Shown here one piece after another: positions 38,162-46,549 of a stretch of 64,000 nt of DNA (positions within the stretch are counted from its first letter, which is position 1; every line of letters starts with the position of its first letter). The position numbers and the translations under genes are program-made. A model generated the notes under the pieces. That model was not told the origin of the DNA, did not search any database, and worked only from the letters and a program-made list of their open reading frames with translations. This DNA is from an uncultured Chloroflexia bacterium (GTDB taxonomy: Bacteria; Chloroflexota; Limnocylindria; QHBO01), in contig CAVVPF010000022.1 in NCBI GenBank assembly GCA_963750025.1, positions 94,778 to 158,777 on the forward strand. Reading direction: 5' to 3'.

Positions 38162-38237
38162 AATAAGGTCCCACGCTAAGATTGAGTTCGGGAGGGGTGG
38201 CAGAGCGGACGAATGCGGCGGTCTTGAAAGCCGCTGA
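38162..38237 (+). pseudogene. tRNA-Ser(TGA) 5'-half fragment with upstream promoter block (copy A, att-like)
   Basis: AATAAGGTCCCACGCTAAGATTGAG, then GGAGGGGTGGCAGAGCGGACGAATGCGGCGGTCTTGAAAGCCGCTGA (38191-38237); no 3' half. Confidence 0.85.
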
Positions 38238-38289
38238 CTACACCTTACCGCTCATCCCTGAGCGTGAGACCGCCGCCATTGCCCCGTTT

Positions 38290-38330
38290 GTGGGGTCTCG
38301 CACCCCACCATACACCCCACCCTTGGGGTC
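38290..38330. repeat. 12-bp-period direct repeat (CACCCCACC x2) flanked by inverted TGGGGTC; arm-site-like
   Basis: CACCCCACC at 38301 and 38313; TGGGGTC at 38291 and 38324. Confidence 0.5.
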
Positions 38331-38434
38331 TATGGACTACATGGTCGCCGAGCGGCGCGCCCGGCCGCGAAATGCGTGGACCGACTGAGATGCCTCCTAC
38401 AGCTCAGGATGACCTGATTGCCTGTCAGGACGCC

Positions 38435-38845
38435 TCAGTCCCTGGGGACGGCGAACGCGACCGATCTCCGATCAGGGCCGATGTGCGCCGCGACGGCTGT
38501 CAGCAGCTCAGCCATCCTCAGCGGCTTGGCGAGGAAGGTGTCGCAGCCGGCCTCCTCCGTCGCCGCACGGTCGGCGGCCAGGACGCGCGCCGACGCGACG
38601 ATGATCGGCATCCGGCTGGTGGCCGGCGCCGCTCGAAGCTCCCGGGCCAGCTCGAGGCCGCTGCCGTCAGGTAGGCCGATGTCGAGCAGCACCAGGTCCG
38701 GATCCTGCTCGGTGAGCCAGGCGCGGGCGTCGGCCAGCGAGCCGACCACCGCCAGGCGATAGCCGGCCGGCTCGAGGACGGCCCGCAGCAGGGCCACGTT
38801 GCGGGCTTCGTCCTCGACGGCCAGGATGAGCGGGGTGGCGCTCAC
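38435..38845 (-). CDS. Stand-alone response regulator receiver (DivK-like)
   Basis: ILAVEDE, LVLLDIGLPDGSG, FLAKP. Confidence 0.9.
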   Translation of the reverse strand: MSATPLILAVEDEARNVALLRAVLEPAGYRLAVVGSLADARAWLTEQDPDLVLLDIGLPDGSGLELARELRAAPATSRMPIIVASARVLAADRAATEEAGCDTFLAKPLRMAELLTAVAAHIGPDRRSVAFAVPRD

Positions 38846-44757: not shown

Positions 44758-45456
44758 GTGACCCCCGCGCCGATCGTCAGCCGCATACTGGCGTCGATGA
44801 CCATCGCGTCTCGCTTACCCGCGCTCGTATTGCTGGTTCTCGTCGTGGTCGCAGCCGCTTTGCTGGTGGCCGGTTGGGGAGTCGCGGTCGGTGTCGGCGT
44901 CTTGGTTGGGCTGCTGCTTGGCCTTGTCGCAATCCTCGCGGCGATGGCGATCGCGCAACGGTCCGGCGGATCCGCGAGCTTCTCGTGGATGAGTGCCGGG
45001 CCGAACCCGACCGAGCCTGACCACACCCTGCTCGCACAGCATCACCGCGAGTTCATGCGCGTGGCGGCGATCGACTCCGGGGACCTTCGACGGGTCATCG
45101 CGGTGGGTGCGGCGGTCGAAGCGGGTGGTGTACGGCTGGAGCTCATCGCGGTCGAACTGCGCACCGATGGAGGCCTTGCCACCCTCGTGGCCCAGACGCG
45201 ACCGCCCATTGGCCCGGCAGGCCATTTCGCCGAGGTCCGCGTCAGCGACGATGTCAATACGGCCTACGTCGCCGCCGGGCAAGGCATGGGCGGTCCGACT
45301 CCGACCACAACCCGCCACGAAGTTCGCTTCGCGCCCGCGCCGCCGGAGGTCGCCGCGGTCTTGTCGATCACCATCGACCGCTTCATTGACCCCTTCCCCA
45401 GCGGTGCGATCCCGATCGATGGTCCGTGGACCTTTGAGATCCGCCTTGGGAACTGA
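44758..45456 (+). CDS. Hypothetical membrane-anchored protein
   Basis: Two N-terminal TMs; Ig-like C-terminus ending GPWTFEI. Confidence 0.6.
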   Translation: MTPAPIVSRILASMTIASRLPALVLLVLVVVAAALLVAGWGVAVGVGVLVGLLLGLVAILAAMAIAQRSGGSASFSWMSAGPNPTEPDHTLLAQHHREFMRVAAIDSGDLRRVIAVGAAVEAGGVRLELIAVELRTDGGLATLVAQTRPPIGPAGHFAEVRVSDDVNTAYVAAGQGMGGPTPTTTRHEVRFAPAPPEVAAVLSITIDRFIDPFPSGAIPIDGPWTFEIRLGN

Positions 45457-45480
45457 AGCGCGCGGTCGAGCCGGCTCGCC

Positions 45481-46368
45481 GTGATCCGCCGCGTCGGGCT
45501 CATCCTCATCATCCTCACGCTCGGCACGGTTCTGCTCCTCGATGGTGTGACCGAGACCATTGCCATCACTCCACCGGGCGGTGCCGAGAGTGCCTTGCTC
45601 GTCGACCGCTGGCTGCAGGCCATGGCGGGAGCAGACGCCGATCGCGGCTGGAGGTACCTGTCGGCAGACCTCCAGGCCGAAGCCTATGGTGGTGATGAGT
45701 CGCTCTACCTGGCGGAGGTCGGGGCCGTCGACTGGGAGGCGGTGCGCTGGGGGAAGACCGAGGGCAGGACCGATGAGGGCTTCTGGTACGGCTACACGCC
45801 CTTGCTTTCTGACCCGCGCACCCTGCCGCGCTTTCTGCACGAGCGCGACCTGGTGGCAGCCTCCTGTGCCGATCGGGCGGCCACGAACATCTTTACCAAC
45901 ATGCCCAGTACGTGGTTCCACGCACCTCGCCTGGAGGCCGTGCAGACAGGCGGATCGGCAGGTCTCTGCGAAGAGCTGTTTTACGCAGATACGGGGCCGA
46001 TGCGGCCGCCGGCCGATCTGGTCGGCTGGGCCTGGGCCACCGGAGGCAACGACAGCATTCGGGTCGAGGTCATCGATGAGACAGGCCTGGTGCGGGAGGT
46101 CAGTGGCGGCCGCGACCAGCCACTGGTAGAGGGCGATGTCACGGTCTCCGACTTCGCGGCCGGCCAGGTCGGTGTGGCCTGGGTGGGCACCGACTGCCCC
46201 GACCCGGTCCAGATTATCGTGGGCGGCAATGAAAATACGATTGATCTCGAGCTGGTTGTCTTGGAGCGACCCGACGTGGAATGCGGTGCGCGCTCCCGCA
46301 CCTACGAGTCGATGCTGCGGTTCTCGGGCGAGATCTCGGCCGACGAGATCGTGGCCACGCGGCGCTGA
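45481..46368 (+). CDS. Hypothetical exported protein
   Basis: N-terminal signal/TM, Cys pairs. Confidence 0.6.
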   Translation: MIRRVGLILIILTLGTVLLLDGVTETIAITPPGGAESALLVDRWLQAMAGADADRGWRYLSADLQAEAYGGDESLYLAEVGAVDWEAVRWGKTEGRTDEGFWYGYTPLLSDPRTLPRFLHERDLVAASCADRAATNIFTNMPSTWFHAPRLEAVQTGGSAGLCEELFYADTGPMRPPADLVGWAWATGGNDSIRVEVIDETGLVREVSGGRDQPLVEGDVTVSDFAAGQVGVAWVGTDCPDPVQIIVGGNENTIDLELVVLERPDVECGARSRTYESMLRFSGEISADEIVATRR

Positions 46369-46461
46369 CAGTCCGCCGATTGGCAGCCGAGCCAGGGAAG
46401 GGCGGCCTGGCGTCCTACTCCGCCCGCGCCTCAATAAGGCCCCACGCTAAGATTGAGATGC

Positions 46462-46549
46462 GGAGGGGTGGCAGAGTGGACGAATGCGGCGGTCTTGAAA
46501 ACCGCTGAGGTGCAAGCCTCCGTGGGTTCGAATCCCACCCCCTCCGCCA
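46462..46549 (+). tRNA. tRNA-Ser(TGA), intact (copy C)
   Basis: GGAGGGG/CCCCTCC acceptor stem, GCGGT-CTTGAAA-ACCGC anticodon arm, long variable arm, GGTTCGAATCC, encoded CCA. Confidence 0.96.

Follow-up and report, generated by a model that had tools for sequence, protein, structure and literature searches.

How does a tRNA-Ser(TGA) gene come to be preceded, on the same strand, by severed copies of its own promoter and 5' half, with blocks of accessory genes between them? This question is raised by the interval between serS and tdk in a 64,000-nt stretch of DNA (the window, numbered from its first nucleotide), which is part of contig C22 of a metagenome-assembled genome (2.73 Mb, 37 contigs, 84.5% complete) of an uncultured Chloroflexia bacterium of the class Limnocylindria, from soil and freshwater. 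A sequence-only reading had taken positions 38162-46549 for a tandem cassette array built by repeated integration at the tRNA gene, with no integrase among the cassettes. The comparisons reported here make it probable, with ample room for doubt, that site-specific recombination in the anticodon loop, by an enzyme acting in trans, has repeatedly inserted recombinase-free blocks at this site. The island spans about 34.7-54.8 kb of the window, beyond the interval first described. Handles beginning with G, C, and L denote genomes, contigs, and loci, respectively.

Repeated promoter box and tRNA-Ser(TGA) copies

A 16-nt box, CCACGCTAAGATTGAG, is present in exactly three + strand copies in the window, at 38171, 42668, and 46442, where 0.02 copies would be expected, and none of 100 dinucleotide shuffles reached three. 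The 5' half of tRNA-Ser(TGA) begins 4 nt after each box (38191, 42688, and 46462), as the sequence-only reading had described. The leftmost copy consists of the box at 38171-38186, which includes a TAAGAT hexamer, and stub A, in which the tRNA 5' half runs through position 46 (together 38171-38237, + strand). In the second copy, the box at 42668-42683 is followed by stub B, the tRNA 5' half to the last anticodon-loop base (together 42668-42726, + strand). Here tRNA identity is lost right after the loop CTTGAAA, at 42726; in stub A it goes 8 nt past this end point, to 38237, and both ends had been read correctly before. The third copy joins the box at 46442-46457 to copy C, an intact tRNA-Ser(TGA) at 46462-46549 (together 46442-46549, + strand; Rfam, 59.2 bits), the only one of the three box-bearing copies at which ARAGORN calls an intact gene.

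A further complete gene, copy D, lies at 54677-54764 (+ strand; ARAGORN; Rfam, 43.8 bits) in the ancestral position beside tdk, behind a beta-oxidation cassette; both had been missed when the array was ended at 46549. The region upstream of copy D is unlike that of copies A to C and holds its own TAGAAT promoter (54664-54669). Its 5' half is identical to stub B, and all six positions at which it departs from the genus consensus, among them a G4-G69 mismatch, fall in the 3' half. The Rfam alignment flags this non-standard pair, and the score is 43.8 bits versus 59.2 for copy C. Copy D was absent from an Rfam run at the gathering threshold with default filters, which was a filter effect, as the short-region search gave 43.8 bits against a cut-off of 29. 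The hexamers upstream of the tRNA copies are probably promoters; a strict sigma-70 scan fails to call those of the stubs and tRNAs as such.

The junction of stub A is unique and of a different type from that of stub B, a distinction overlooked in the sequence-only reading together with the module of about 105 nt behind stub B. The sequence 3' of the stub A junction had no match in 400 other genomes of the class. The possibility that stub A is a tRNA with an insertion was rejected, given an Rfam score of 25.2 bits over 38191-38310 (cut-off 29) and a 3' part that fails to pair with the acceptor strand.

Empty and occupied sites

Where the loci of the genus reach far enough, the order is serS, a divergent DinB-like/TPR gene, tRNA-Ser(TGA), tdk, a shikimate-dehydrogenase-like gene, tRNA-Ser(GCT), and tRNA-Arg. 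The site is empty in four genomes of the genus (G003, G005, G001, and G013), in which an intact tRNA directly follows the DinB-like gene and carries a TAACAT hexamer, the native promoter, 7 nt upstream; within these 2-3 kb loci, serS was seen in G003, G005, and G013 and tdk in G003 and G013. At the occupied loci G021, L195, L196, L201, and L203, the native promoter still stands beside the DinB-like gene and is followed by a stub and a module. The intact tRNA of occupied loci, at the tdk side, has a TAAGAT or TAGAAT hexamer that lies within cassette-specific sequence. In the source genome the DinB-like/TPR gene has been deleted.

Comparison of the empty sites with the occupied ones, in which the native promoter can be traced, shows that the promoter and tRNA 5' half come with the inserted DNA and that the 3' half is the chromosomal one, kept in place. 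The same observations bear out two earlier proposals, of elements equipped with a promoter and 5' half and of stacked integrations, the native promoter being kept in the leftmost stub. The proposal that each integration pushes the functional tRNA downstream needs correction in detail: the 3' half beside tdk is fixed, and older cassettes are pushed upstream.

The position of the junction is indicated by several classes of fragment. Non-module 5' junctions fall within 8 nt of the loop, at +8 in stub A, at +5 in G027, and at 0 and +1 in the two 5' junctions of G082, a genome of another family. G082 shows the same direction of insertion through a sequence marker, its D-loop being of the family's own type in the stub and of the other type in the 5' half of the intact gene. 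Stubs of the 3' kind, in which tRNA-Ser(TGA) begins at the first loop base, are present in other families of the class, the mirror-image pattern expected if the loop is the region of strand exchange. Strand exchange in the loop is therefore favoured, as 5'-type identity ends at the 3' edge of the loop, 3' stubs begin at its 5' edge, and junctions lie within 8 nt or less. By their alignments, both the direction of insertion and the junction position may be regarded as established.

A conserved module behind the stubs

The conserved non-coding module, a putative recombination arm, was delimited at 42727-42829 (+ strand) from alignments of 10 and 30 copies. It contains two GTAAGCCACAG repeats (42807 and 42819) and two CACGCTG motifs, and a more weakly conserved tail follows to about 42852. 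Short forms of the module have one GTAAGCCACAG unit and long forms two; these direct repeats resemble arm-type sites. Mean column identity in the 30-copy alignment was 86%, among copies that are not all independent.

In a search of 41 relatives, 5' stubs ending at the same base as stub B were found, with the unpublished genomes G016 and G018 included in the tallies. Fifteen loci were fetched, and nine of their stubs end exactly at the loop end, which is the end point of all nine module-type stubs (9/9) in this set; that of G027 ends 5 nt later. The loop TTGAAA and the first base of the module are invariant columns in all 30 aligned stub-plus-module copies, so that the crossover at the anticodon loop suggested by the sequence-only reading was recovered as a common end at the last loop base. 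Every loop-end stub of the fetched loci runs into the module, and beyond the module the sequences are unrelated.

Of the genomes searched, 8 of 29 in the genus and 13 of 401 in the class have the module, the latter count including the unpublished genome G266, which is the sole evidence for genus g31; apart from this count and the tallies for the 41 relatives, nothing claimed here depends on unpublished genomes. By family, it occurs in 10 of 153 genomes of f1, spread over four genera, in 2 of 92 genomes of f2 as partial copies only, and in none of 155 genomes of the other three families. Identity across the four genera is 83-92%. The junction pattern also matched 14 metagenome contigs and 10 contigs of public genomes, the latter titled as assemblies of Candidatus Limnocylindria, Chloroflexota, or Chloroflexia. 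Clusters of the module motifs were not found elsewhere in the source genome.

A structured RNA was considered and rejected: none of 32 pairs predicted in the consensus fold of the 30 copies covaries (covariation term -0.09), the fold of stub plus module has a z-score of -1.06, and Rfam reports only tRNA in 38100-46700.

Two loci away from the usual setting were also recorded. At L047 (G022:C2:362000-381900), two tRNA-Ser stubs with modules about 0.95 kb apart, the second degenerate, were located at 2112-3205 and 11386-12492, in an apparent 19-kb tRNA-Gln(CTG) island that has a frameshifted integrase and lies away from serS-tdk. At L211 (G082:C2, 9346-9961, other family), a partial module, a small membrane protein gene of low G+C, and a box with a 5' half of genus-g1 type lie close together, and the stub itself continues into unrelated DNA. 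The arrangement looks like that of a cassette that passed from one family to another.

Exchange of cassettes between species

Two cassettes of the window have close counterparts in other species. Cassette 0, a GT4 glycosyltransferase and GH130 cluster (34705-38170, + strand; Pfam Glyco_transf_4 and GH130), is 95.2% identical over 3403 nt in G006, 95.7% over 2339 nt and 94.2% over 1110 nt in G021, and 94.7% over 1329 nt in G015. The beta-oxidation cassette (46616-54676, + strand) is 95.1% identical over 6870 nt in G015 and 94.8% over 8160 nt in G009. Flanking core DNA in the same genomes has 74-89% identity versus 94-96% for the cassettes. On contigs C19 and C117 of G021, identity jumps from 79-85% to 94-96% at the stub or tRNA. 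In general, a block of high identity starts just past a module and stops where the following stub reaches its loop end. The right-hand neighbour of cassette 0 varies, being the intact 3' half in G021, a module and an ABC transporter in G006, a module and the beta-oxidation cassette in G015, and the stub A junction with cassette 1 in the source genome. On its left, the stub and module have been lost here, a partial module is present in G006, and G021 retains the full stub and module. Judged by these identity profiles, cassettes have been exchanged between species, and their boundaries are established.

Variation of the serS-tdk interval, which had been suggested as a check, was observed: the number and content of the cassettes differ between relatives. 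By our own count, about a dozen distinct cassettes are bounded on both sides, with lengths of 1.0 to 8.2 kb, and two of them hold a single intact gene, for an alpha/beta hydrolase (1.2 kb) and for a methyltransferase (1.6 kb). The cargo in relatives is of ordinary accessory function and includes ECF sigma factors, a BNR protein, a cNMP-binding protein with a cyclase, PadR, VanZ, HIT, KdpD-Usp, GNAT, OsmC, and GGDEF-EAL proteins.

Search for a recombinase

The profiles PF00589 and PF00239 had no match on contig C22 and 12 and 3 matches genome-wide, all on other contigs, in agreement with the earlier statement that the cassettes lack a recombinase. When 60 proteins were scanned with Pfam, the sole PF00589 match was a frameshifted integrase beside tRNA-Gln in G022, and a tblastn search with 11 recombinases against 338,081 bases of array loci returned only this same gene. 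It was rejected as a candidate although it lies near stubs on contig C2 of G022, since it belongs to the tRNA-Gln island, is frameshifted, and has a homologue in the source genome that is also beside tRNA-Gln.

In G027, a genome of another family, an integrase beside tRNA-Ser(TGA) matches only 1 of 29 genomes of the genus (G017, E = 1.3e-11), which is without the module, and this candidate was also set aside. At that locus (L048, G027:C26, 6865-15546), a gene for a 416-aa integrase is just upstream of tRNA-Ser(TGA). A 3' stub whose sequence starts with the first base of the loop follows 6.8 kb downstream, and the stretch from tRNA to stub contains no integrase. The DinB-like/TPR protein was rejected as a possible recombinase, having only weak Pfam matches to TPR_2 and DinB_2, an NCBIfam match to a TPR end domain, and no PDB match below E = 0.2.

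In each of the genomes G019, G006, G015, G021, G009, and G045, only two PF00589 matches were obtained, of about 129-172 and 133-150 bits. The same two occur in every genome searched and are taken to be the Xer pair. PF00239 had no match in G022, G019, or G045. At G012:C151:6253-8611, three adjacent tyrosine recombinase genes are found on one strand, a trio which we take to resemble a recombinase-in-trio element. The failure to find a recombinase is weak evidence, as the assemblies are incomplete and mobile elements are often lost from bins. Excised circles had been suggested as a further check; no circle or clean excision junction was seen in the contigs of four public runs, which are short pieces and silent on absence.

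Proposed mechanism and alternative explanations

The serS-tdk interval would be a cassette array that arose by repeated insertion of blocks into the anticodon loop of tRNA-Ser(TGA). Each block would have a short arm at one end, in the main class the module of about 105 nt, and at the other a promoter with the tRNA sequence from its 5' end to the anticodon loop. A crossover inside the 7-nt loop would leave the resident promoter and 5' half as a stub fused to the arm and would join the incoming promoter and 5' half to the resident 3' half beside tdk, so that the tRNA gene would stay intact. New blocks would enter beside the 3' half and shift older ones towards serS, where stubs and arms would decay; the losses at the left end of cassette 0 fit decay at the old end of the array. 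The cutting enzyme may be of the tyrosine-recombinase type and encoded elsewhere, either on a helper element that is unbinned or no longer present or as a resident enzyme, and the module may be its accessory binding arm.

Several observations count against recombination in the loop by an enzyme acting in trans. There is no module behind stub A. Copy C is intact though the beta-oxidation cassette lies to its right, and two complete tRNA copies are not predicted by the simple model; G009 and G015 have a stub and module where the window has copy C. The complete copies C and D might have arisen if a circle bearing a complete tRNA gene recombined with another complete copy. Cassette 2 is a mosaic, different blocks of which recur in different genomes: its right part (43979-46448) is 88-93% identical to G012 and metagenome contig L201, and the block of its 134-aa gene is 90% identical to G022, so processes besides clean cassette insertion also act. 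An integrase-bearing element with the same attachment site (att), which had been proposed as something to look for, was not found in the scans of genome, metagenome, and viral contigs: the module was never beside an integrase, its matches in public genome contigs (10 and 7) and the metagenome (14) being all stubs, and its patterns had 0 matches in viral contigs. G045, 95% complete in two contigs, has a stub and module with only two Xer-like PF00589 matches and no PF00239 match. All compared genomes are metagenome-assembled, and most array contigs are short.

Homologous recombination is the main rival and could give the same products. After one or a few founding fusions of a 5' half to the module, cassettes would move in DNA arriving from relatives, by way of their short conserved flanks, namely the 5' half and module on one side and the promoter box and tRNA on the other. 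Such movement suits the failure to find a recombinase in or near any array, the identity of all module-type junctions, which could descend from one event, and the mosaic nature of cassette 2; complete copies C and D around the beta-oxidation cassette would be expected from recombination over the whole tRNA. It sits less well with the clustering of four or more further 5' junctions, each of independent origin, at the anticodon loop or stem and with the start of the 3' stubs of sister families at the loop, a pattern that fits a loop-specific enzyme. The homology arms would also measure only about 40-100 nt, and a neutral arm should not keep 83-92% identity over four genera with unrelated cargo. 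We consider this explanation unlikely, yet one to be taken seriously. A more specific version of recombination in trans appears rather doubtful to us: the cassettes would never have had recombinases and would represent integron-like gene capture made from other parts, with the tRNA-Ser(UGA) loop and the 105-nt arm as the site, a resident or unrecognised recombinase as the enzyme, and an accessory gene pool extending over Limnocylindria. In several genomes with arrays, no tyrosine recombinase other than the Xer pair was detected.

The array might instead be a graveyard of ordinary tRNA-integrating islands that lost their own integrases by later deletion and became cis-mobilizable by decay. Decay to att-only elements with tandem accretion is described for streptococcal elements in the excerpted text of PMC5704250, and old junctions do decay in the present loci, as seen in the partial module of G006, the leftmost stub lost from the source genome, and the degenerate second copy on C2 of G022. 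However, none of the dozen or so cassettes of 1.0 to 8.2 kb, some with one intact gene, has an integrase fragment, and integrase-free cassettes that are 94-96% identical between species point to recent movement in that state. Cassettes that are small, intact, and recently shared make the decay of once-autonomous islands less likely, and we hold it to be improbable. An artefact of assembly or binning might also be considered, as the genome is an assembly of 37 contigs and 84.5% completeness, and metagenome assemblies can break or join at tRNAs (one G009 contig ends in a stub and one G306 contig starts in a tRNA). Against this stand the same architecture in 13 of 401 genomes of the class, including assemblies of two and four contigs (G045 and G022) that have contigs of more than 1 Mb, and its presence in 14 metagenome contigs. 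The repeat unit of about 60-75 nt is moreover below read length, and stub/module junctions differ between copies, which speaks against collapse or false joining; an artefact is very improbable indeed.

Comparison with known systems

Repeated insertion at the loop by an enzyme acting in trans resembles several described systems in part. The Islander paper (PMC4383910, excerpted text) names an anticodon-centred class of tyrosine integrase sites, and the junctions seen here follow its pattern. Table 1 of that paper gives 159 islands with a 5' fragment versus 3760 with a 3' fragment. The 5'-fragment islands, as the excerpt presents them, share with the array a tRNA target, a crossover centred on the anticodon loop, restoration of the gene, and a displaced fragment at the end (PMC4383910). 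Stubs A and B and the intact copy C all lie on the + strand in the same orientation, and the crossover is at the canonical sublocation, the last anticodon-loop base in all 30 aligned stubs. By contrast, the excerpted definition of an Islander island requires an internal integrase gene (PMC4383910), whereas no integrase was found inside any cassette by the profile search of C22 or the search of 338,081 bases of array loci. The cassettes further differ in being sometimes as small as one gene and, in one class, in having a conserved arm of about 105 nt.

Streptococcal elements of the ICESt1 type are, in the available part of their description, likewise blocks that lack recombination genes, are flanked by att sites, and are stacked by site-specific integration at an att site that belongs to the resident element (PMC5704250). 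They are seen there as decayed integrative and conjugative or integrative and mobilizable elements, next to a partner that has an integrase and for which the 3' end of a gene is the site (PMC5704250). The present cassettes are flanked by att-like sequences and are without integration or transfer genes, but neither a partner nor remnants were seen, the module being found only at stubs in every scan of these incomplete assemblies, and the 5' half and promoter are supplied by the incoming DNA. Tycheposon islands of Prochlorococcus, as far as the accessible portion of the preprint describes them, are also stacked at tRNAs, with scattered partial tRNAs, newer elements pushing older ones inward, and adaptive cargo; tRNA-Ser(TGA) is among the tRNA labels of a figure legend (bioRxiv 10.1101/2020.12.28.424599). 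In that same portion, tycheposons have their own tyrosine recombinase and replication genes (bioRxiv 10.1101/2020.12.28.424599), in contrast to the array in this Chloroflexota lineage, where neither was found. The cargo here comprises only signalling, metabolic, and membrane proteins, and no hallmark genes of replication or packaging were found in it. Xer-exploiting elements (IMEX) integrate by XerC/XerD at the chromosomal dif site; the target here is a tRNA gene, not dif, and several array genomes show only two Xer-like recombinases.

Integron arrays are chromosomal series of small recombinase-free blocks, each bounded by a site, with entry at one fixed end; an integrase gene and an attI site adjoin the array, and the cassette ends have imperfect palindromes of the attC type. 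The likeness lies in small, site-bounded blocks without a recombinase of their own and in the entry of new blocks at a fixed end. The likening to integrons in the sequence-only reading did not hold in the strict sense: no integrase is adjacent, the array being flanked by serS or the DinB-like/TPR gene on one side and tdk with the shikimate-dehydrogenase-like gene on the other, no attC-like folded site was found (0/32 pairs covary; z-score -1.06), and genes occur in both orientations in cassettes with their own promoters. We know of no description of the present system, within a limited literature search that cannot show there is none in print. It is a variant of known tRNA-island accretion, set apart by the supply of the 5' half, the conserved arm, the lack of an integrase, and recent sharing between species.

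Cassette contents and flanks of the island

On the left, the island is bounded by serS (33359-34627, + strand), identified by tblastn with the seryl-tRNA synthetase of a relative (82% identity, 423 aa), a protein that has the Pfam domains tRNA-synt_2b and Seryl_tRNA_N. On the right, tdk (55033-55617) and the shikimate-dehydrogenase-like gene (55626-56501) form the core flank (55033-56501, - strand; Pfam TK, Shikimate_dh_N, and Shikimate_DH), and both adjoin the tRNA in the genus loci examined. The direct neighbours of 38162-46549 are a GH130 gene and a TetR gene, with serS and tdk farther out.

In cassette 0, the GH130 gene (36039-38142) is split over two frames, with Pfam profile positions 32-174 and 180-319 in separate open reading frames. 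Contigs of three public runs (X2, X3, and X4) have one extra G behind 37660, and the split in the window is either a true frameshift or a 1-nt assembly error. Cassette 1 (38238-42667, - strand) encodes, by Pfam, a REC protein (38435-38845), a hybrid histidine kinase (38842-41331), and a REC-HD-GYP protein (41374-42471), all on the - strand. The kinase has no close orthologue in 28 other genomes of the genus, the best match being partial with 50% identity.

Cassette 2 (42830-46441, mixed strands) encodes a NUDIX protein (42905-43399, - strand; Pfam), an AAA_33/zeta-like kinase (43451-43999, + strand; Pfam), and three proteins that resemble membrane or secreted proteins without a family match (44322-44726, 44758-45456, and 45481-46368, + strand), called on the basis of G+C at third codon positions (GC3). 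The content given for cassettes 1 and 2 in the sequence-only reading was thus confirmed for the signalling genes and for NUDIX and kinase, and corrected from four further open reading frames to three. The NUDIX and kinase genes form a block of 1131 nt (42848-43978) directly behind the module, and this block is missing from the related cassettes of G012, L201, and G022, which begin at 43979/43993. One contig of run X3 joins 42847 to 43979 and omits both genes, and in another the tRNA 3' end (46553) is followed directly by 55026, next to tdk; with 90% likeness, either may be a relative's. At L201 (8943-8980), the gene of a homologue to the 295-aa protein is followed by a box that breaks off after CCCACGCT and has no tRNA behind it, a truncated cassette end. 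The beta-oxidation cassette encodes TetR, 3-hydroxyacyl-CoA dehydrogenase, thiolase, acyl-CoA dehydrogenase, and acyl-CoA synthetase (Pfam); in a promoter scan, it has its own TTGACC-17-TAGACT promoter at the start and the TAGAAT promoter at 54664-54669 at the end.

Farther to the right, tRNA-Ser(GCT), tRNA-Arg(GCG), tRNA-Ser(CGA), and tRNA-Ser(GGA) are clustered in 56600-58800, with a MafB19-like/cytidine deaminase gene at 57647-58369 and a large signal recognition particle RNA that begins at 58700. The G+C content of the window is about 70%, and falls at positions 62001-64000 to 0.59-0.61 versus about 0.70 elsewhere.

Implications

Integration that supplies a 5' half is rare (159 of 3919 islands in the Islander table; PMC4383910, excerpted text), and here it is integrase-free and has a short conserved site. 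If the enzyme were found, the tRNA loop and the 105-nt arm would make a compact natural landing pad. In genome annotation, promoter-bearing tRNA 5' stubs are to be read as markers of cassette boundaries, not as tRNA genes or noise. Shared cassettes differ by 4-6% between species with core-gene differences of 11-26%, and the system looks like a little-known route of gene exchange, by which these uncultured bacteria with small genomes gain and swap accessory genes for signalling, fatty-acid oxidation, glycan use, and stress at one tRNA gene.

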